A stretch of 64,000 nucleotides of DNA from a virus (lineage: Duplodnaviria; Caudoviricetes), in IMG/VR virus record IMGVR_UViG_3300028833_000067, positions 96,001 through 160,000 of that record; one strand, written 5' to 3'. Positions 2,082-55,966 of the stretch are shown here, one piece after another. A program made the translations under genes and the position numbers. Below the pieces are notes generated by a model. The model was not told the origin of the DNA, did not search any database, and worked only from the letters and a program-made list of their open reading frames with translations. How positions within the stretch are numbered: position 1 is the stretch's first letter; the number at the start of each line of letters is the position of its first letter.

Positions 2082-2312
2082 ATGGATATTAGAGAGTGTG
2101 TTAAGTTCTATGATGACGATGATTTGTCGGAGTTAAAGATAAGATATCCAATACATGTAAAACTTTTAACGGAACTAGCTTCCCATAGACAAGATTATTT
2201 TATCGCGGATAAAATGGATGACTTGCTTGAATATGTAGATGGCAATGGTTTTTCCATTACTTATAATGCCTTTATGGATAAATATATTGTAAGGAGAGAG
2301 AAGACAAAATGA
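2082..2312 (+). CDS. hypothetical protein (DGNGF family)
   Basis: RBS AAGGA, 76 aa. Confidence 0.65.
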   Translation: MDIRECVKFYDDDDLSELKIRYPIHVKLLTELASHRQDYFIADKMDDLLEYVDGNGFSITYNAFMDKYIVRREKTK

Positions 2313-2851
2313 ACTATAACAATGTATGGCATTTTGCCTATGGCAAACGCTATTATTTAACGCATCCTTGGAAGTGGATAAAAGAAGTTGGCTATAATAT
2401 TCGCGCCGCATGGCAGCGCGCAACTCGTGGCTGGACGTATATGGACGTATGGAGTATGGATACTTGGTTTCTCCATACTATTCCTCCAATGCTTCGTTAT
2501 CTAGCAGAAAATGGCCATACATTTCCAGGCGTTGAGCCGTTTGATGGCGAAGAAGGCCCACAGCGCTGGAAAGATTGGCTCATTGAAACCGCAGATTTGC
2601 TAGAAACTGGCCTTGAAGATTGGCAAGATAAACATAATGAGTATTATGAGGAATATATAAAGCATTTGATGGATGATTGGGAACTACCAGTCAAAGATGA
2701 AAATGGTTTTCTTGTTCATAAGCAGCGCGAATCTACTGAGCTTGATAAGAAATACTTTGCGCGCGCGAATGAACTAATGGACCAAGGCGAAAGAAATATT
2801 CATGAGGCTCTAAATAGGATTTCTCAATTTTTCTACTCCCTGTGGGATTAA
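2309..2851 (+). CDS. hypothetical phage protein
   Basis: 180 aa, coupled to neighbours. Confidence 0.7.
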   Translation: MNYNNVWHFAYGKRYYLTHPWKWIKEVGYNIRAAWQRATRGWTYMDVWSMDTWFLHTIPPMLRYLAENGHTFPGVEPFDGEEGPQRWKDWLIETADLLETGLEDWQDKHNEYYEEYIKHLMDDWELPVKDENGFLVHKQRESTELDKKYFARANELMDQGERNIHEALNRISQFFYSLWD

Positions 2852-2862
2852 GGAGGTGCGCG

Positions 2863-3066
2863 ATGACAGCTAGATTAAAGCGCAATGGGCCGAAATTCCA
2901 TTGCTCGAATTGTATGATGGAGGTTCACCCGCGAGAGGGCCAACTTCCAATTTGTTGTGGATTTTGTTCCGCCGTATTTTCCAATTGGGAAGAAATCGCA
3001 ATTGAAGAATATAAAAAGGAATTGGAACATGCGCCAAATTATTTGAATTCTACTGGAGGTAATTAA
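2863..3066 (+). CDS. small Zn-ribbon protein
   Basis: AGGAGG RBS; CSNC...CGFC. Confidence 0.6.
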   Translation: MTARLKRNGPKFHCSNCMMEVHPREGQLPICCGFCSAVFSNWEEIAIEEYKKELEHAPNYLNSTGGN

Positions 3067-3068
3067 AT

Positions 3069-3287
3069 ATGAAAATCGTTTACACTGAAAGATATACTGT
3101 ACTATCGCCGCTTATCCGTTCCCATTACTGTGCCTGTGGCAACCATTCGCCTCGACTTGTAGAACAGCTAGAACCATCTACTGAATATAAATGGCGCGTA
3201 GAGTGTCCAGAATGCTGCCGCGAAACCCCTATGTTTTCATCATCTTCCGAAGCAAAGAGAGCCTGGAGTGAAAATAACCTATGCTAA
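3069..3287 (+). CDS. Lar/restriction-alleviation-like Zn-ribbon protein
   Basis: CACG...VECPEC...EAKRAW pattern. Confidence 0.5.
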   Translation: MKIVYTERYTVLSPLIRSHYCACGNHSPRLVEQLEPSTEYKWRVECPECCRETPMFSSSSEAKRAWSENNLC

Positions 3288-3580
3288 CAATGTTTACAGC
3301 CTTAGAGGCTCGCGCAACAGCATATTTGGTATCATCCGAAGATTACTCACTCTATCAGCATATAGAGATTCGTATTCTTGATAGCGTACAACATGGTGGT
3401 ACTCATATTCTTTATGCTGGAAAAATTACAGAAGGCGTAATTAAGGCGCTACGAGCGCTTGGATATGAGGTTACGCATCTCTACTATGAGGGCACGGAAC
3501 GAATGATACGTATAGATTGGACTAATATTAGGTGCCCGGACAGCTTGATATGTCCGAAAGGAGAATTACAAGATGACTAG
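3281..3580 (+). CDS. hypothetical protein (LGY-V family)
   Basis: LRALGYEV...IRIDW. Confidence 0.65.
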   Translation: MLTMFTALEARATAYLVSSEDYSLYQHIEIRILDSVQHGGTHILYAGKITEGVIKALRALGYEVTHLYYEGTERMIRIDWTNIRCPDSLICPKGELQDD

Positions 3581-3758
3581 ACAAGACATGATTGAAAATT
3601 TGGAATACTTGTGCGGCGGAATCAATGCGCTATATACCATATCTACTAAAGATAGTTCTTTTCAAGAACTACTTGATACTTGGGCTACACTTGCTGAAAG
3701 CGTATTAACCGCTTTGGAGGATGAAGAACGTGAAGACGTACGAAGAGGGAATGATTGA
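3573..3758 (+). CDS. hypothetical protein
   Basis: RBS AAGGAG, coupled. Confidence 0.55.
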   Translation: MTRQDMIENLEYLCGGINALYTISTKDSSFQELLDTWATLAESVLTALEDEEREDVRRGND

Positions 3759-4119
3759 GGCTACTCAAATCATAAATAAAATTTATAGCCTAAGTGATAA
3801 AGAACGCAATATTTTATTTGGAAATAAAGGTTTTTCGGCCTTACTAGCCTCTTCACAAAATATCTTATCCTATAAGGATATTATAGAAAGAAAAGATGAG
3901 TTAATACATAAGTATGTAGAGGTTGGAGATGTACTTAGCCGCGACGGAGTTGAGTATGTAGTGACTTATGTATCGCCGGATAATAAATTCGATATAATTA
4001 CTGTAAATGGGCCTCTTAAAGGAAGCGTTATGAAAGATTTAGATTTTGATGCCTTCGGCGCCGAAAGGACTGAAGACAAATTATATAAAATAGATTTACG
4101 GAGGTATTCTTGGGAATGA
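3721..4119 (+). CDS. hypothetical protein
   Basis: 132-aa ORF, GGAGG RBS. Confidence 0.6.
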   Translation: MKNVKTYEEGMIEATQIINKIYSLSDKERNILFGNKGFSALLASSQNILSYKDIIERKDELIHKYVEVGDVLSRDGVEYVVTYVSPDNKFDIITVNGPLKGSVMKDLDFDAFGAERTEDKLYKIDLRRYSWE

Positions 4120-4373
4120 GTAAGTTTTTGAACAAAGAAGAAGTACAGGCACTAACTAGAGAAAATAAGGATAGTCGGATGCTAATGCAGCAGGAGCGTA
4201 TTGCTGAAACCATTAATAGCGCCGCTTGTAAGGGATTTTATAACTGTGTAATTAAGGGAATTATTTGGCCTAGAATTCGTGACGAACTACTAGAGCTTGG
4301 GTATACCGTAAAGTTTGATAATACTAATACCATTATTAGTTGGGAGGATAATTCAAATGCCGCGGACGCTTGA
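4116..4373 (+). CDS. hypothetical protein (LGY-V family)
   Basis: LLELGYTV...TIISW. Confidence 0.65.
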   Translation: MSKFLNKEEVQALTRENKDSRMLMQQERIAETINSAACKGFYNCVIKGIIWPRIRDELLELGYTVKFDNTNTIISWEDNSNAADA

Positions 4374-4557
4374 AGAGCTAGCTGAAATGCTGTCAAAACG
4401 GGATGGAATTAGTTTTGAAGAAGAAATGGCGGCGATAAGAGATACCGCCGCGGAATTGGAAGCGGCCTTCTATGATGGAAATTTGAATCTTGCAGAAGAT
4501 ATTTTGCGGGAGGATTTGGGATTGGAACCGGAATTTTTGGATTTATTTATTTTTTAA
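4357..4557 (+). CDS. hypothetical protein
   Basis: GGGAGG RBS; 'KRDGIS.EE...LGLEPEF' phage-type motif. Confidence 0.6.
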   Translation: MPRTLEELAEMLSKRDGISFEEEMAAIRDTAAELEAAFYDGNLNLAEDILREDLGLEPEFLDLFIF

Positions 4558-4630
4558 AATAGAATAAAAATGATTAGTCAGACCTTTTTCTTAATACTCT
4601 TAAATAGAAGAATATTAAGGAGATGATAAT

Positions 4631-5677
4631 ATGACAGAATTATCTTATATTGATGGAATAGATTATAAAGGCCGAAAATATTAGAAAGCTATACCAAAAG
4701 AATGGCAATAGAAACGATATGCTAATAAAAAGTTTGGCAAATTATTTGTAGAATGTCCTGTGTATGTAAAAGGATTAGTTACTTAGCCAGATAGCACCAA
4801 TGCTATCTGGTTAACGCATTGTGATTGCGGAAACGATTATTGTATTAGTATGTAGTGGATTAGAAAAGAATTAAAAAAGAATCTTATTCCAGATTGCGGT
4901 TGTGGTGCACGTGAAGAGTAGGATAAAAAATATATAGGAAAAACTTATAATTATTTAACAGTAATTGCACGTGATGATGAATATAAAAAACAAGGACATT
5001 TTAGTAATACGAATACATATTATAAATGTCGATGTATTTGTGGTAATATAATTCCTGTACGAATTAATATTTTAACACATGGAGATGTGAAGTCATGTGG
5101 CTGCTTAAAAGAACAATAGGATAAGATTAATCTTATCCCTAAAGAAATGAATGATTTAACAGGATAGCGATTTGGACATTTAGTTGCATTATCCCCATTT
5201 AAAAATATTAATTATACAGGTAAAGAATATTGGTGGCATTGTCTTTGTGATTGCGGCAACTATACTGATGTACGAGGAACTTGTTTAACACGAGGAGATA
5301 CACAATCTTGCGGTTGTATAAAGATAAGCCGCGGAGAAGAATAGATTAAATAGTTATTAGAAGCTAATCATATTCATTATATATATAATACAGCATACTT
5401 TAAAGATTTAATTTTGCCTTCAGGATTTTTAGGCCGTTATGATTTTATATTGTTTGATAATAATAATTAGCCTTATCGTTTAATTGAATATGATGGACAA
5501 CAGCATTATTAGCCTATTGAACATTTTGGTGGAGAGGCAGATTTTAAAATTAGATAGCTTAATGATAATATAAAAAATAATTATGCTCATATGCATAATA
5601 TTCCTTTAATACGTATTCCATATACTATAACAGAAATTACTATAGAAACTTTATTAGGAGATAAATATTTAGTTTAA
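4631..5677 (+). CDS. putative free-standing homing endonuclease (C-x-C-x-CG repeats + C-terminal PD-(D/E)XK/Vsr-like nuclease), TAG-recoded
   Basis: Continuous frame if TAG=Gln; WHCLCDCGN...SCGC repeats and RYDFIL...LIEYDGQQHY; paralog of 62468..63367. Confidence 0.75.
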
Positions 5678-5783
5678 ATTATTTTTAAAAAAATAAACAA
5701 TACTTTTTATTTCTCCCTCCTACTCAATATAAGAAGAAGTTTATACTTCTTCTTTATTTTTATATAAATGGGGGTGAATAACT

Positions 5784-6155
5784 ATGGAAGCAATAAAGCA
5801 ACAATTCATTTTACCTGTAACGCCATAGCAGACTGCTGTGAAATCATCAGTATACCCCTGGGAACGTACCAACTTATTTGTCTTATGCTAGCAACTTTAT
5901 TCACTTGCCGCAAAAACAGGATATTTAGGTACATTTGAAGAATTTAAGGCGCATTTTGGTGAATACTTAGAATCGGGCGAATCTATTATAGATTATGATA
6001 CTTATACAGGATAGTATGAAGTAACACCATTGCCTAATGTAGCATCAATTTTACGCACTCATAATAAAGTTCTTAAGCATGACGTAGTTATTCAACCTAT
6101 ACCATATTATGAAACAACAAATGAAGCAGGCGGTTATACCGTCATAATTGGATAA
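5784..6155 (+). CDS. virion-associated hypothetical protein (TAG-recoded)
   Basis: GGGGTG RBS; C-terminal 'IPYYETTNEAGGYTVIIG'. Confidence 0.65.
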
Positions 6156-6168
6156 GGAGGAGATTTAA

Positions 6169-6774
6169 ATGGCAAATCTATACAAGAATAAAGTTATTTA
6201 TGGCGGCGATGTACTAATTGACTTAACCTAGGACGATGTAACCGCTGCCGATGTAGCCTCGGGCAAGAAATTTCACTTACCTTCTGGCGCGACCGCAACT
6301 GGTACTAATACTTATGACGCCGATACATCGGATGCAACTGCGGTCGCCGCGGAAATTCTTAGCGACAAAACCGCATATAAAAATGGTACGAAGTTAACAG
6401 GTACTATGCCTAATCGAGGTGCGGTTACTGGCTCTATTACTACTGTTGCAGGTGAATATACAGTACCACAAGGTTATCATGATGGTAGCGGCAAGGTTGC
6501 TATCGCGGCGACAGAGCAGGCAAAACTAATTGCTACAAATATTCGTGAAGGTATTACTGTTTTAGGTGTTACTGGTACTATGAGTGGTAGTGAAGGTGTT
6601 AAAGCCACTGCCGCATCCGTTACTCCATATACTACTGCATAGACAATTACACCTGCGAGTTTAGGTGACTTTAATAGTATTACTCAAATCAATGTTGCCG
6701 CGATTGCTTATACAGAAAGTGATAATGCCGCAGGTGGTGTCACAGTTACAATTGGTACTGTTGCGCCAGCGTGA
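6169..6774 (+). CDS. tail-associated structural protein (TAG-recoded)
   Basis: AGGAGG RBS; LIDLT.DDVT..DV..GK, GTMPNRGA, YTVPQGYHDGSGKV tail-protein repeats. Confidence 0.7.
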
Positions 6775-6788
6775 GGTGGTGAAGCATA

Positions 6789-7205
6789 ATGGCAAATAAT
6801 CCTTATATAAATAAAATAAGTTATGGGGATTAGACCTTAATTGATTTGACTGCTGATACAGTTGCGGCAAACACATTATTAAGTGGATATACCGCGCACG
6901 ACGCTTCGGGCGCAATAGTTACTGGTACTATTTAGGCAAAAACATAGAATGATGTGACTATTGACGGCACTGAGGTTAATGTAATAGCAGGATATTATCC
7001 ATCTGTTAATAAGAATATAGATGGGATTTAGCTAACTGTTCCAGAAAGTAATACACATGATTTTTATATTGATTTTCCAGATACTATTGCGCCCGCGTCT
7101 GCTAGTGATTGGTCGCGTATTGTTTTTAGTGTGGATGATGAAGGGAATTCAACGGTGACGGATAGCTAGATGAATTTAATTGCGGCTGAGGAGGTATCTT
7201 TTTAA
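6789..7205 (+). CDS. tail-associated structural protein (TAG-recoded)
   Basis: N-terminus paralogous to preceding gene (LIDLTADTV..LLSGYTAHDASG). Confidence 0.65.
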
Positions 7206-9130
7206 TGAATGATATTTATACTTTATAGAAATCCACATTGGATGGATTAGGAGATGCTATGCGTAAGCATTTCGATACAACAGATACCTTTACGCCGCTG
7301 GAAATGATTGAAACATTAAATACGGCAGATACTAGTCTACTTGACATACAATTAAATAATAATTTGCATATTAATCCAACTACTGGAAAATGGGAGCGTC
7401 CCGAAACTTGGCCTGACATAGATGCCCTAGCCGCGGAATGCGATGGAGAAGAAGACTGCTTATATCTTACATATGATTTAACTGTTCACCCTGATTATCA
7501 CTGGATAGGGATATTTGTAAATATGTCAGAAGGAGACACTTGGTATTTAGATAGATATGATGAGGGTGAATTTACTCATACGCATCTATCTGCTTCAAAA
7601 AATGATAGAATAAGGTATGACTTAACTGAGGAACCGGATAATAGTACAGTATAGGTTTGGCGGTTAACTTCTAATGGACATATTAATCATTTTGGTTTTG
7701 TGCCAAATACCACGGTAGAAGCAGAAAACTTTGCCAATAACTTACAGCCCTGTGTTGACCGTGCGGGAATATTGCCTTGGTGTGTACGGGTAGGTCCTGC
7801 TGATAATTTCAGTGGCTATAGAGGTCCAAATAGCTATATTGGCACAACATTCTGGCTAGAACATGACGCCTTAACATTCGGAACAAAAGCAAGTGTTACT
7901 AGTTTACGCAATTTTTGGCTTGAAGCGAGACGGTTAGCCGTAATAGATACAAGTAATTGGAATACAAGTGGCTGGGCAGTTACAAGTTTAAATTCTACAT
8001 GGAAATCTTGTACTTCTTTAATAGAATTAGAATTAAATAATTTAGATACAAGTAATTGGGAAGTAAATAATATGGCGAATGCTTGGTCGGAATGTTTATC
8101 GCTACGACAATTGGATTTGAGTAATTGGAATACTTCCAACTGGTCTGTAGCGAATCTTTAGAGTACTTGGTTTCGCTGTTATAGCCTAAAAGAATTAGAT
8201 ATTAGTACTTGGGATACTTCGAATTGGGCGGTTACAACGATACAGGACTGCTGGAATTTCTGTTATAATTTAGAAAAATTAGATTTAAATAATTGGGATA
8301 CTTCCAATTGGCGAGTGTCAACATTAAATAGTACTTGGAATTAGTGTTATAGTTTAAAAAAATTAAATATAGACAACTGGAATGTTAGCAATTGGCCGAT
8401 AACTACCTTATCCTCGACTTGGAATGGTTGTCGATCGTTAAAACAACTAAATTTAAATAAATGGGATACTTCAAATTGGAAATTAACATCTCTACAGAAT
8501 GCTTGGTAGGAATGTTATAGTTTAAAACAATTAGACATTGATGAATGGAATACCGGGAATTGGCTACTAACTACTTTGTCAGGTACTTGGAGATATTGTT
8601 ATAGTTTATAGAAATTAGATTTAAATAGTTGGGATACTAGTAATTGGTCATTAACATCATTATATTCGACTTGGCAAGGTTGTTATTCATTACAAGAATT
8701 AAATATTAATGAATGGAATACACAAAATTGGGAAATACACGATATGCGTAATATAATTAATAGCTGTTATAATTTAAAAATCTTTGATATCGAAGACTGG
8801 GATATAACAAATTGGAGTAATATTAATTTTCAAAGTGCTTTCGAGAACACATGGGTGCTATAGATTTGTCGACTTCCATTAGGACTCCCAGTAACTTCTA
8901 ACTTTGGATATCCTAACGGTATGGCATTAATATATTATTCAGGATATGGTATTAATATTAATCATAATCTTTCGAGTACTAAATTAACAGCTGAATCCAT
9001 CCGATCTATTTTCAGCCGCTTACCAACCATCTCTAACTCATTAACAATTACTCTCGGCGCGGAAAATCTTCTCAAAGTAACCGCAGAAGACATCGCAGTT
9101 GCAACTAACAAAGGCTGGACAGTAGCATAA
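7205..9130 (+). CDS. BspA/DUF285-like leucine-rich repeat protein (~641 aa, TAG-recoded)
   Basis: ORFs 7238, 7700 and 8921 are in one frame; ~28-aa repeats W..CYSL..LDL..WDTSNW; C-terminal IAVATNKGWTVA. Confidence 0.8.
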
Positions 9131-41434: not shown

Positions 41435-44248
41435 ATGGCGGATTATATTAGCCAAATAACACTTCCAGATGAAAGTACATATGATTTGAAAGACGCCGCT
41501 GCCGCGCGTGGTAATGGTAGAGTATTTTATGGAACATGTTCTACTGCTGCTGGTACGGTGCCGAAAGAAGTAATTTGTAATAAATATGATACTCTTACTA
41601 TTGGCGATATTTTGATAGTAAAGTTTGCTAATACTAATAGTGCAGCTGTTAATGATAATTTAAAATTATAGATTACAAATTCAAGTGGCAGTACAACTGA
41701 AGCTAAATCTATTAAATAGCAATATAACTCAACTGGTAATAATAATTTAAATGCTGCCGGACAATTAAATAAAGATAGTATTTCAGCTTTTATATATAAC
41801 GGTACATATTGGATTTTATTAAATGGTAATTATAATACTACTTATAGTTATATGCGTCCTTATGGTTCTACTGCAAGCGATATAGCAGCTAAAACTGGCA
41901 GCTCAGGATGGAAATTTTAGTTAACTGCCGGTAAATATTTTATGTTTACGTAGTATTATGACAATACCGCACAATCAGCTTTAACTTTAAATATTGGCAG
42001 TACAGGAGCTAAACCAATTTATATTAATGGTGAACCATCTTCTGCGAATAACTATCTTTTACCGGGAGGATAGTACCTTGTATATTACGATGGTACTAAT
42101 TATCATTTTAGAACTGACGATAAAATACCTGGAAATATTGCAGGAGATGCAGCAACGGTAAACGGTTTAACTGTATAGACGGCGGTGCCTCAAAATGCTA
42201 TATTTACGGATACAAAATCTTTTACTATTACTGCTAATGCAACTGATGGATATTGGAATTTAACTGGAACTAATGGAACTAATGCAGTTACCTATGCTTT
42301 AGCTCCATACTCTTCTAAACAATCAGGAGCCAATTTTTATACAGGCACCACCGTACCGGATGGTACTACGCGTCTAAATTATAATGGTTATTTATATGCT
42401 ACTAAATTATACAGTGGAGGAACTGAGGTATCTGTTAATGGACATACGCACGATGACAGATATTCTTATAATCATTTAAGTGATTATGATTTTACAGATA
42501 CTCAACCACTAAGTAAATATGTTACTTTTGATAAATCAAGGCCCGTTGGCGCGCCTAAGGAAGAATGGTATAATGGTTTCATTAGCTCTCATAGTAATTA
42601 TCATGCTTCTTATATTATAAATGGACACACGCACTAGAATGAATGGTATGTTGGACATGGAATTTGGAGAGAGGCTAATACTCCACATGCTACAGCACCT
42701 ATTTGGTATTTACTGGCACATAGTGGAAATGTAACTACTGGTGATAATAATGGATAGGTAAAGATTGCTGGGTAGAATGTAAGTGTAAAAGGATTAAAAG
42801 ACCTTGCATATATAGCAAAGCCTACTTCTAATACTACCACTACTTTCTTACGTGGGGATGGTACATGGCAAACAGCATTAACTGCTCATTAGAGTCTAGC
42901 CGCTTATGCCCCACTTGCTTCTCCAGCTTTAACTGGTACGCCTACCGCCCCTACCGCGGTGAATGGAACGAATACAACTCAAATTGCTACAACAGAATTT
43001 GTTAATAATACATTATCATATGTAAATGCAATGCGCTTTAAAGGTACATTAGGCACTGGCGGTACTATTACCGCATTACCAGCATCTCATGAAGCAGGTG
43101 ATACATATCGTGTAATAACTCCTGGTACTTGGGCAGGTAAGTATTGTGAAGAAGGTACCTTAATAATCTGTGTTAAAGATGGTACTGTTGCATCAAATGA
43201 TGACTGGACTTCAGTTGAAACTAACGAAGATGGAGCAGTAATTGGTCCATCAACAGCAACAAATGATGGCATTGTTTTATTTAGCGGTAATACCGGTAGA
43301 ATTATAAAAAATAGTAGTAAAACACTCACAACAACCGCTCCTTCCACTGATTCAGATGATACAACAATTCCAACTTCTAAAGCAGTTTGGACTACAGTTA
43401 ATACTGCAATTACTGGGCTTGACTTTACCGCAGTTGGTGGTGATACTGGAGAATATATTAGTAAAATTTCTCAAACTGATGGTAAAATAAGTGCTACTAA
43501 AGCTACTACTTCTGTATCAAATACTTGGACTGCAGGGACAACAGCAGGCCCGACAATAAAAACTACAGTAAATGGAATAGCTGGCACAGCGGTAGCAATA
43601 CCATCTGCTAGTAATACTGCTAGTGGTATTATTACTACTGGAGAGCAAACTTTTGCTGGAATAAAAACTTTTGCTAATACTACTGCTTCTACCTCTACAG
43701 ATACTGGGGCGGTTTTAGTCGGTGGCGGATTAGGAGTAACAGGATAGATAACCGCTGCTCGTCTTGCCGCAAATGGCAGCAATACCTCTTATAATTTATA
43801 TGTAAACGGAACATCCCTATTAAATGGAAATACTACCGTTAATGGAAACTTAATTCCTGGCGCGAATAATACTAAAATATTAGGCTCTACTGATGATAGA
43901 TGGGCCAAATTATATATTGGTAATGCCAATAATCATGGAGATGCCTATACTCCAATATATTGGGATGATGGCGTCCCCACAGTGGTGACTCCTGTATAGT
44001 ATTGTGAATTCACTATTAATGAAGGAACAACTGGAGTAAAACTTGAGCATACAGCTTTTACCACAGCTTCATATGTTATTTAGATTGTAGTTACTAGTGG
44101 TGAATCTAATCTTAATTCTACTATTACATGGGGAAGTGCGGCAGGCTATATCAATTTAACTTGTAGTGCTACTTCTGGCGCAGTAAGTGGTTATATTTTA
44201 GTAAGTAGAGGCGGAGCAATTACTGCAATCGCAACTGATATAACTTAA
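41435..44248 (+). CDS. long tail fibre protein (~937 aa, TAG-recoded)
   Basis: ORFs 41435, 42185 and 42959 in frame; APLASPALTGTPTAPT..TNTTQIATTEFV fibre motif. Confidence 0.8.
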
Positions 44249-44354
44249 TATTTGACTTTTTTCAAATTCCATGATATAATATTTACAGAAGATGAGGAAA
44301 GGAACTCACCTTCTATAAAATAATTTTTTTCATTACATAAGGAGGTAATGAGAT

Positions 44355-44693
44355 ATGATTAAAATCTACAGTGATAAGACCGGAAAGTTCTATAATACAG
44401 TAGACGAAGCAAATCGTGCTGAATTTGAACTGAAGGAAAAGGAAAACCTAGCTCGTATTGAGAAGGAACGCAAAGAGCGTGAACTCAAGGAAAAGAAGGA
44501 TAAGGAAGCCGCTGAGCGTAAGGCTGCTGCTGAAAAGGTAGAAGCCGCGCGCAAAGCAATGGTAGATGCCCAGAAAGCATATAAGGAAGAACTGGATAAG
44601 TTCATTAAGACTTATCATACTTATCATTTCTCTTCTAATAATGTAGAAGATTTTCCGCATCTGTTTGACGTACTAAACGTATTCAGCTGGTAA
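44355..44693 (+). CDS. coiled-coil hypothetical protein (early promoter, no TAG)
   Basis: MIKIYSDKTGKFY...AEKVEAARKA. Confidence 0.75.
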   Translation: MIKIYSDKTGKFYNTVDEANRAEFELKEKENLARIEKERKERELKEKKDKEAAERKAAAEKVEAARKAMVDAQKAYKEELDKFIKTYHTYHFSSNNVEDFPHLFDVLNVFSW

Positions 44694-44699
44694 TGGCTC

Positions 44700-44724
44700 G
44701 GGCTGAGCCTAATCAGCCCTTTTT
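44700..44724 (+). terminator. intrinsic terminator immediately upstream of suppressor tRNA
   Basis: GGGCTGA-GCCTAA-TCAGCCC-TTTTT. Confidence 0.7.
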
Positions 44725-44728
44725 CTGG

Positions 44729-44991
44729 TGCCCTGCGGTCCGTGGCGGACAGACGGTCTCTAGGCTTAATTGGAGCCTTATATGGGGACATATAAGTGAA
44801 AACGTCGCTAAGTCGGTGAAGGCTTAACTGCTAATACCGAGCAAGGGATAAATCCTATGTGTAGAGACTTTACACGACGCATCTAGAACAGATGAAGATA
44901 AAGTCCAGACCACAATACGAAAGTAATGTGATATAGAAAACCGTGGCCTCTGAAGCAAACGAAGTTGGTTCGATTCCAACCAGGGCAGCCA
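44729..44991 (+). tRNA. amber suppressor tRNA (anticodon CUA, Gln-type acceptor); exons 44729-44761 and 44937-44991
   Basis: Acceptor TGCCCTG/CAGGGCA, G73, encoded CCA; spliced anticodon arm ACGGT-CT-CTA-AA-ACCGT; T arm GTTGG-TTCGATT-CCAAC. Confidence 0.85.
44762..44936 (+). mobile_element. group I self-splicing intron (175 nt, no ORF)
   Basis: Exon U / IGS GGAG P1, terminal G, P2 CTTATATG/CATATAAG, P3 CGTCG/CGACG, TCGGT/ACCGA, R element GTAGAGACT, S element GAAGATAAAGTCC, P8 CATCT/AGATG, GAAA-capped P9. Confidence 0.9.
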
Positions 44992-45668
44992 TTAGGTTCT
45001 TCTCTCAACCTATCGCGACAATAGAGAAGCGGCATGAAAGCGCCGTATAAGTACTTCGGGCACTAATACTATGCCTTAGCTTGCCTAGGAAAGCAAAGTA
45101 TCCGACGAGTTATAACGTCTGTAAAAATGATATAACCGTATTAATGCTACGTATGTGTATTCGCAGTACCGCTAAGGCGTTATGGAGCGGCGTAAGGTGT
45201 CACGATATCGCATCATTAGTGGATAAGGGAATTGCGAACCCTTATGGCCATGATTTTCCGTATTTTGAACGTCATTGCAAGTGGCTTAGTAGAAATGCGG
45301 AATTTTTTATAGGAGAGAGAATATGGAAGATTTAAAGAAAGAATTGGCGCGAGTAGGACTAGATAAAGATGATACAACTGAAAGTATATTACAGGAACTT
45401 GCGCTAGAATGGAATAGCATGTCCCAAGAGCAGAAAGATCATTTTATTGAATTATTCACTCAAGCAGATTTAAACAAAATAATTATTTGACATATAATAA
45501 AATTTTTGTTATAATTTATTCGTAAGGAAGGGAGAGATGAGAATGTTAGATGATTTCATTATGAATTTCTCTTGGGAAGAGCTTGAAGACGAATATTACA
45601 CAATTGAAGATTTGGAAAATGATTATTTGACAGAAGAAGAAAATTAATGTATAATAAAGGAGTAAGAG

Positions 45669-46860: not shown

Positions 46861-46933
46861 CGCACCTAGGACAAACAGTTAAGTCACGGCGCTCATAACG
46901 CTTGAGGAATCGGTGCAACTCCGATAGGTGCTA
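46861..46933 (+). tRNA. tRNA-Met(CAU), initiator-like (unpaired C1)
   Basis: Loop CT-CAT-AA; C1/U72 mismatch; T loop TGCAACT. Confidence 0.8.
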
Positions 46934-48847: not shown

Positions 48848-49453
48848 ATGAGTAGAGCAGAAGATGTAAGTAATTATCGTAGAAGAAGAAAACAAAATCT
48901 TATTGAGGTTTTGGGTGGAAAATGTTAGATATGTGGTTTTGATTTATTTGCAGATGCATTAGAATTTCATCATGAAGACCCGACTAAAAAAGATTATGGA
49001 ATTTCTTCAAAAGGGACTTGCCATGATATTGAAACTGACCTGAATGAAGTAAAAAAATGTTTTTTATTGTGTGCAAATTGTCATAGAGGAGTTCATAGTG
49101 GTTATTATGATGCTCCTACAGAACATATATTCAATAATGAATTAGCGCAAAGATTAATTAATGAACGCAATGATAAAATGACTGCTAAATTAAATTATTG
49201 TATTGATTGTCATTGTCAAATAGACTCTACAGCAACTCGCTGTCCAAGTTGTGCAGCAAAAGCCAGACGAGTTTGTGAAAGACCTTCACGAGAAGAATTA
49301 AAGAAATTAATTCGCACATTACCATTTACTCAAATTGGAGAACATTTTGGCGTTAGAGATAATACAATACGTAAATGGTGTGATAATATGAATTTACCAA
49401 AAACTAAAAAAGAAATTAATTCTTACTCTGATGAAGAATGGGAAAAAATTTAA
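48848..49453 (+). CDS. HNH endonuclease with C-terminal HTH (TAG-recoded)
   Basis: LGGKC(TAG)ICG...LEFHH.DP..K...LLCANCHR.VH; IG..FGV.DNTIRKW. Confidence 0.85.
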
Positions 49454-49504: not shown

Positions 49505-49622
49505 GGGAGATTCGCTAATCGGAATAGCACGCGGCTGGCCTGATACCAAAGAGATATAATAGGGGCAGGTCCTATATCAGACAATTAACCGCGCCAGAGA
49601 GGTTCAACTCCTCTATCTCCCG
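49505..49622 (+). tRNA. tRNA (probably Asn, GUU) with 47-nt insert in anticodon loop
   Basis: GGGAGAT/ATCTCCC, G73; CGCGG-CTG[insert]TTAA-CCGCG; T arm AGAGG-TTCAACT-CCTCT. Confidence 0.7.
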
Positions 49623-49717
49623 CTCGTGCTTTGATGACCAAATGTAGCTTGGCAGTAAATAAACATTAATGCAGATGTGGGGTTATGATGAAAGCCTTTA
49701 CCTTAAAAGGCTATTAT

Positions 49718-55895: not shown

Positions 55896-55966
55896 GGGGA
55901 TATAGTATAACAGTAAAACAGTAGCTTTGCAAGCTTCAGACCGGGGAGCGTCACCCCGTATCTCCA
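55896..55966 (+). tRNA. tRNA-Ala(UGC)
   Basis: G3.U70 pair, loop TT-TGC-AA; T loop AGCGTCA. Confidence 0.85.

Follow-up and report, generated by a model that had tools for sequence, protein, structure and literature searches.

The locus at 44729-44991 raises the question of how a phage that uses TAG as a sense codon can read UAG when default tRNA scanning of its genome finds no tRNA with a CUA anticodon. The window, the whole 64,000-nucleotide stretch analyzed here, belongs to a rumen phage whose IMG/VR record (G000) is 176,887 bp long and 98% complete. The cover of this record by long ORFs rises from 0.61 to 0.92 when TAG is read as sense, and ~579 in-frame TAGs are distributed over 100 of the 176 ORFs with a density of 1-3 per 1000 amino acids at both genome ends compared with 10-24 in the structural blocks. 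Each of the seven related records examined (G000-G005 and L081) is TAG-recoded. When the genome is aligned by tblastn with two of these (G001 and G002), its TAG codons lie opposite TAG (109), CAA (59), CAG (30), and then Lys and Glu codons. Gln codons account for 89 of ~275 non-stop cases against a Gln background of 2.8%, and in the reverse direction the TAGs of G001 and G002 lie opposite Gln 90 times. This alignment of TAG positions with Gln codons means that TAG is read as Gln (code 15). A Tyr or Ser identity, an idea that came from the long variable region of the tRNA described below, related tRNA-Tyr introns, and a Sec-like Rfam match, is rejected as both amino acids occur at TAG positions at background level (Tyr 4 and Ser 19). 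A crAss-like affiliation of the phage is likewise rejected, the best deposited relative of its tail protein being from a Clostridium phage (43% identity), and a blastn search of 44600-45120 against the INPHARED phages gives no match.

Of the 13 tRNAs that default ARAGORN and the Rfam tRNA model report for the window, none is at 44729-44991, and the CUA gene is also absent from the window calls of the Rfam model at gathering. ARAGORN in intron mode places a single 88-nt tRNA(cta) here with a 175-nt intron after nucleotide 33 (junction 44761/44937), and direct reading of the sequence gives the same tRNA(CUA) gene, with exons of 33 and 55 nt on either side of the insert (Table 1). No other CUA tRNA was found in the 98% complete genome, intron-mode ARAGORN included; splicing would yield the one candidate amber suppressor of this genome, to which the decoding of UAG is assigned because it is the sole CUA tRNA. 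Default ARAGORN finds no CUA tRNA in G000, G003, G004, G005, or L081, all of which are TAG-recoded and have only the split gene, as the group I intron inside the anticodon makes the program blind to it. The first-pass annotation had suggested that the intron conceals the suppressor from tRNA scanners, which proves correct in these five records, and that this could explain recoded phages seemingly devoid of a suppressor, for which the five records now supply one concrete cause. TAG- or TGA-recoded phages without a detectable suppressor have been described (Yutin 2021, PMC7886860; 2025 zeta crAss-like paper, PMC12386605), and intron-aware scanning should reveal hidden suppressors and improve code assignment in viromes.

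Other tRNA calls in the window also differ between programs. The Rfam tRNA model finds tRNA-like genes at 46861-46933 (36.8 bits) and 55896-55966 (46.1 bits) that are uncalled by ARAGORN, and intron-mode ARAGORN finds a second split tRNA at 49505-49623 with a 47-nt anticodon-loop insert, which is too small to be a group I intron. Similar tRNA inserts of 46-86 nt are present in G001, G002, G004, and G005.

Table 1. Positions of the split tRNA(CUA) gene, the helices of its intron, and the upstream hairpin, in window numbering
Feature	Position	Strand	Basis
Terminator-like hairpin with T5, ending 4 nt 5' of the tRNA	44700-44724	+	Sequence
tRNA(CUA) 5' exon, 33 nt	44729-44761	+	ARAGORN; identical in intronless L002
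Group I intron, 175 nt, without ORF	44762-44936	+	Rfam, ARAGORN, intronless alleles, covariation
P1, exon CUCU and intron AG with guide UUGGAG (44770-44775)	44758-44775	+	Alignment (n = 17)
P2, 8 bp, GNRA loop GGGA at 44785-44788	44777-44796	+	5 compensated pairs; L2 GNRA in 17/17
P3 5' strand, partner 44875-44879	44803-44807	+	3 compensated pairs; 98.8% of cells paired
P4-P5-P6 domain	44813-44859	+	MFE fold; P4 invariant; P5 and P6 compensated
P4; P5; P6	44813-44816 with 44837-44840; 44821-44823 with 44830-44832; 44842-44859	+	Compensated pairs: one in P5, two in P6
P7 5' strand, G-(bulged A)-GACUUUA, partner 44899-44906, presumed guanosine-binding helix	44864-44872	+	
P8, 5 bp, 5-nt loop	44880-44894	+	2 compensated pairs
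P9, GAAA loop at 44919-44922	44911-44930	+	5 compensated pairs; L9 GAAA in 16/17
Omega G, last intron residue	44936	+	Invariant in 17/17
tRNA(CUA) 3' exon, 55 nt	44937-44991	+	ARAGORN; L002 alignment

The 5' exon starts at U1 with the acceptor 5' strand, followed by a D arm (4-bp stem, 5-nt loop) and the ACGGU strand of the anticodon stem, and it ends within the anticodon loop at C32 U33 C34 U35 (ACGGU-CUCU). The 3' exon opens with AAA-ACCGU, in which A36 A37 A38 complete the loop and are followed by the 3' strand of the anticodon stem, and continues through a 19-nt variable region with a CUCUGAA hairpin, the T arm, the acceptor 3' strand, G73, and an encoded CCA. A 7-nt anticodon loop, U33, and CUA at 34-36 are all present in the cloverleaf, as called by ARAGORN both on the spliced sequence and on the intronless alleles.

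Pattern scans of IMG/VR show the same tRNA with the insert absent in three contigs (L002, L028, and L031), each of which reads an unbroken ACGGTCTCTAAAACCGT over the junction. The exons of L002 are identical to those of the window, L028 differs by compensating changes in the acceptor stem (U1-A72 to A-U and U6-A67 to C-G), and L031 carries compensating changes in the T stem. The flanks of the three contigs are syntenic with the window at 69-75% identity, and the alignments skip from 44762 to 44937. The DNA comparison leaves the junction ambiguous by one A because an A is present on both sides, and the U at -1 in a U-G pair together with the G ending the intron directs the cut to between U35 and A36, inside the anticodon. 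The intronless relatives plus group I rules fix the predicted junction as CUCU/AAAA. The two structural claims of the first-pass annotation are borne out here: that a group I core splits the gene between U35 and A36, on which ARAGORN, the Rfam alignment, the intronless alleles, and covariation agree, and that joining 44761 to 44937 restores an ACGGT-CUCUAAA-ACCGT loop, which the three intronless contigs carry as an unbroken read. The suppressor anticodon stem-loop ACGGTCTCTAAAACCGT is also found in seven viral contigs (L003, L004, L007, L012, L016, L022, and L030) within a scaffold that is not a tRNA (GGCTCG...GACGAGC, with a GC-rich hairpin region after it), where it looks like an anticodon-arm mimic in another RNA.

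Core- and junction-motif scans of viral and metagenome contigs yielded 17 distinct CUA pre-tRNAs with introns of 171-177 nt, across which the fold of the insert was compared; the structure tested is the one named on the window's own sequence. Matches judged to be due to chance were removed from these scans, comprising four of the six matches to the CGGTCTCTAGNCTTAATT pattern (L138-L141, in coding DNA) and 44 of the 61 distinct metagenome matches to a gapped pattern, which lack the P7 core and a tRNA call. The whole structure, composed of the intron helices and three tRNA stems, is 93% paired by cell (n = 17). Both-sided changes affect 27 pairs, a count that drops to 4-9 if the partners are slid and that none of 500 shuffles attains. 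The intron helices taken alone are 90-100% paired compared with 30-43% when slid. Compensated pairs are placed mainly in P2, P3, P5, P6, P8, and P9 (23 of the 27), and the 17-sequence alignment has four in the T stem of the pre-tRNAs. The same covariation count was also made on an earlier 5-sequence alignment. When the 263-nt precursor is folded by MFE, the acceptor, D, and anticodon stems reappear together with P2, P4-P6, P7, P8, and P9, with a z score of -3.08 and 0 of 200 shuffles as good.

The splice-site U-G pair, the guide UUGGAG, P4, and the terminal G are invariant across the set. The P1 wobble between U35 (44761) and G (44772) is unchanged in 17/17, all 17 sequences keep the five inner pairs of P1, which involve CUCU and the first A of the intron, and the sixth pair is G-U in 12 sequences and A-U in five. 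The guide UUGGAG is complementary to the ligated CUCU/AA, so that its UU would be able to form P10 with the 3' exon. Seven of the eight P7 pairs are invariant in 17/17 and the eighth is conserved in 16/17, with the helix aligning to the Rfam consensus AGACUA...UAGUC. P4 and P7 show no covariation because they show no (or almost no) variation, and the comparison speaks neither for nor against P7. In this candidate guanosine-binding helix, the G-(A)-GACU strand paired with AGUCC agrees with the arrangement in the Tetrahymena intron. The window copy departs from the other 16 in having A in place of G at 44907 (J7/9) and AUAUAG in place of GUGAAG before the 3' splice site.

The class of the intron was considered using features of subgroup IC3, namely a compact core without P5abc or P7.1/7.2 and tetraloops L2 and L9 docking on P8 and P5, respectively. 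The helix inventory and GNRA loops presumably match those of IC3 tRNA introns, and on this comparison of helices and tetraloops the intron is a candidate for the IC3 tRNA-intron architecture. The covariance search with Rfam Intron_gpI that had been proposed as a check is positive in one respect, the model aligning end to end over 44757-44929 (36.5 bits, E 1.2e-7 for a 701-nt stretch), and falls short in another, the scores of the window and of L060 (40.7 bits) being under the gathering score of 50 for this family (RF00028). According to the Williams 2020 preprint (doi 10.1101/2020.01.27.920355), the Rfam seed is without bacterial introns and cut-offs of 18-20 bits were used.

The tRNA body is odd, with C8, a short D loop, and the 19-nt variable region, and the best Rfam match of the intronless alleles is tRNA-Sec at 34-36 bits compared with a model threshold of 47. 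Given this body, it is only from the codon alignments that charging with Gln is proposed. The putative identity residues U1-A72, G2-C71, G10, and G73 fit the GlnRS identity set of Escherichia coli. The variable region contains a short hairpin at 44946-44958 whose stem covaries (UCC/GGA, CAC/GUG, UGC/GCA, and CGC/GCG) and which is likewise present in L005, L006, L021, L025, L058, L120, L181, and others. Its 7-nt loop is almost always CUCUGAA, the sequence of the tRNA-Gln(CUG) anticodon loop, and is shared by several CUA tRNA bodies that otherwise differ, both intron-bearing and intronless. One guess is that the hairpin may serve as an identity element, or as a mimic, for GlnRS.

Contigs from sheep, goat, and bovine gut runs contain the stretch. 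Sheep-gut RNA contigs X3 (depth 241 compared with 18 for the intron-bearing form) and X4 contain the 44761>44937 joint, and so does DNA run X1 (38 compared with 24 intron-bearing). The joined X3 contig has two more joints upstream and thus derives from an intronless relative in the same community; as the joint appears in RNA and DNA runs alike, it gives no verdict on splicing. RNA contigs pile up at 44323-44363 to a depth of ~1500 compared with 107 in DNA. Directly 3' of the tRNA, the 45010-45205 region has a depth of 2300-7300 in the RNA runs compared with 70-330 in the DNA run and probably encodes an abundant small RNA; an Rfam search of this region found no matching family, and the corresponding position of L002 (1512-1656) matches the cow-rumen-3 RNA with 100.6 bits.

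A second structured RNA lies upstream of the suppressor. The cow-rumen-4 RNA motif (RF02948, 57-78 bits) is found ~380-450 nt upstream of the CUA tRNA at six related loci (window 44285-44351, L002 963-1030, L028 2554-2615, L031 4602-4664, L081 7110-7174, and L232 962-1026), so placed that the RNA and the suppressor look like a conserved cassette. In the window the motif is preceded by a near-consensus promoter-like site (44252-44280) and separated from the tRNA by a small ORF (44355-44693), the 112-aa product of which has no Pfam or PHROG match of note. Between the suppressor and the next tRNA are two perfect TTGACA-17-TATAAT promoter-like sites (45487-45515 and 45627-45655), which together with a Clostridium phage as the nearest deposited relative hint at a Firmicutes host. 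The tRNA arrays of related phages contain ROOL RNA (316 bits; L120 2084-2675), tmRNA (L060 118-470), skipping-rope RNA (L058 6612-6679), and a weak YrlA-like match (L081 10390-10494).

Taken together, the locus is very probably a real amber-suppressor tRNA(CUA) gene that is split between U35 and A36 by a group I intron, reads UAG as Gln, and carries the intron as a mobile passenger. The precursor would lose the intron to form an 88-nt tRNA by the steps of other group I introns. In P1 the guide UUGGAG would pair with the exon CUCU through the U-G wobble, a free guanosine bound at P7 would attack after U35, and the last G of the intron would then occupy the guanosine site as the exons are joined, with the mature tRNA(CUA) expected to read UAG as glutamine.

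The first-pass annotation had proposed a further role for the intron, as a timer of the genetic-code switch. The suppressor would be delayed by splicing that is slow or GTP/Mg-dependent, possibly with help from the terminator-like hairpin upstream, so that TAG-rich late genes are translated late, an account that we consider unlikely. Also improbable is an extended form in which the intron is a ribozyme gate, with folding and GTP/Mg2+ setting when, or in which host state, code 11 gives way to code 15, and with spread by reverse splicing via UUGGAG specifically among suppressor tRNAs; if true, a group I intron among the smallest in nature (171-177 nt) would have given rise to a ribozyme-gated genetic-code switch. 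The sole suppressor does require intron removal, and the fold is intact in 17 distinct intron-bearing CUA sequences with several different tRNA bodies; however, G001 (100% complete) and G002, which are equally TAG-recoded, carry an intronless version of this tRNA, as does L028. The hairpin ending 4 nt 5' of the tRNA and the uneven use of TAG between genome ends and structural blocks would suit a gate, whereas the same intron family resides in ordinary tRNAs where no switch is at stake. Azoarcus-type group I tRNA introns splice fast in vitro (PMC13168695), and a delay is therefore not the default expectation. Finally, the window intron is 80-85% identical to the other 16, and the exons are 39-62% identical once the bases fixed by the search pattern are left out; conservation of an intron well beyond that of its exons is typical of a mobile element. 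With equally recoded intronless relatives, introns in ordinary tRNAs, and this excess of intron over exon conservation against it, the timer claim is unsupported, and the intron probably did not evolve to time the code switch.

The intron is thus most likely a tolerated mobile element, as judged from these comparisons, belonging to a family that appears to have spread through phage tRNA anticodon loops, usually after U. An incidental delay of suppressor maturation is compatible with passenger status. The wider family, collected using a 17-nt J6/7-P7 motif, occupies many phage tRNA genes, with related introns placed after U35 in tRNA-Tyr(GUA), Asn(GUU), and Lys(CUU) and after U34, the classical site, in Leu(UAA). 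No further copy was found in G000 by nhmmer, and the 175-nt intron has no ORF and no homing endonuclease within it. HNH homing-endonuclease-like ORFs are present elsewhere in the window at 4631-5677 (with 12 in-frame TAGs) and 48848-49453 (inside the tRNA array), and it is possible that they help intron or gene mobility. Several group I introns per tRNA array are observed in other records (L043 and L045; L059, L076, L122, and L136; G004 41802-42088), examples being an opal-type tRNA(tca) with a 210-nt insert, Leu(UAA) split at 34/35, and Phe(GAA).

Two other accounts of how the phage obtains a working suppressor concern the activity of the insert itself, and both are given a very low probability. 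Small group I cores sometimes require helpers, and the insert might be removed with a phage or host protein such as a maturase-like helper, or by other RNases followed by ligation of the halves. Its 171-177 nt are fewer than the 205 nt of the Azoarcus intron (PMC13168695), with peripheral support consisting of two tetraloops only, but the full P1-P9 set and the L2/L9 GNRA loops resemble those of self-sufficient IC3 tRNA introns, and conservation of the U-G pair and terminal G would be pointless for excision by proteins alone, which argues against it. That the window copy is dead or dying, with UAG decoded by a suppressor from the host, a phage tRNA that escaped detection, or an intronless relative in co-infection, is most improbable, since the deviations of this copy near the 3' splice site and in J7/9, its non-canonical tRNA body, and the intronless relatives in the same samples are set against exons identical to the intact L002 gene, helices that are all intact with the catalytic landmarks present, the 579 TAGs that lie in frame in a 98% complete genome where no second CUA tRNA was found, and four further recoded records that also have an intron-bearing copy only.

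Read as a split Gln-decoding suppressor with a passenger intron, the locus can be compared with known systems. The classical bacterial tRNA introns, as listed in the Williams 2020 preprint (doi 10.1101/2020.01.27.920355), are fMet.2Ug (33/34), Leu.3Ug (34/35), Ile2.5Ug, and Arg.5Ug (36/37), all of them IC3. The proposal that the present site and host tRNA differ from these four types agrees with that list (fMet 33/34, Leu 34/35, and Ile/Arg 36/37). The preprint gives 17 additional bacterial cases, among which the 35/36 site may already occur, and mentions neither phages nor suppressors. Features held in common with the IC3 introns of bacterial and plastid tRNAs, for which the Azoarcus pre-tRNA-Ile is the model (PMC13168695; PMC3984707), are the absence of an ORF, the anticodon-loop location, a compact P1-P9, the exon-end U in the P1 U-G pair, the terminal G, GNRA loops on P2 and P9, and a P1 adjoining the anticodon stem. 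The differences are the phage host, the CUA stop suppressor, and the 35/36 site inside the anticodon, and compared with Azoarcus (205 nt) the intron is smaller (171-177 nt), with a score under the Rfam gathering threshold. Sup, Tyr, Asn, and Lys(CUU) tRNAs share the U35/N36 insertion site inside the anticodon, and a ribozyme family of this size is convenient for structural and engineering work.

The literature search returned no description of a phage suppressor tRNA that is interrupted by a group I intron. Self-splicing introns of a mobile type are tolerated in phage protein genes (T4 td/nrdB/sunY, Twort, Bastille, crAss-like, and Jug; PMC3984707, PMC7886860, and PMC12363816), which the present intron resembles in that HNH ORFs occur in the same genome and from which it differs in its location in a tRNA and its lack of an endonuclease. 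According to a 2014 review (PMC3984707), every phage intron known at that time was located in a protein gene, although phages carry many tRNA genes. Since then, Devoto et al. (2019, PMC6784885) have reported "enigmatic" introns in the tRNAs of Lak megaphages, tRNA-Tyr(GTA) among them, and tRNA introns were noted in recoded jumbo phages (PMC13037316). By the descriptions in these papers the present case is similar, with introns in tRNA genes of TAG-recoded gut phages, and a related group I intron is found at the same 35/36 site of phage tRNA-Tyr(GUA) in L042, L043, and L045. In contrast, the introns of the two papers (PMC6784885 and PMC13037316) are not classified as group I and none is reported in a suppressor tRNA. 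A further parallel is provided by the theta (HDV-like) ribozymes, which adjoin phage tRNAs, one fifth of them suppressors, and have been proposed to take part in the code switch (Kienbeck et al. 2024, PMC10879173). Both systems link a self-processing RNA to suppressor-tRNA maturation in code-15 phages; the theta ribozymes cut a 3' trailer outside the tRNA, whereas the intron described here lies within the anticodon itself, and the two folds are unrelated.
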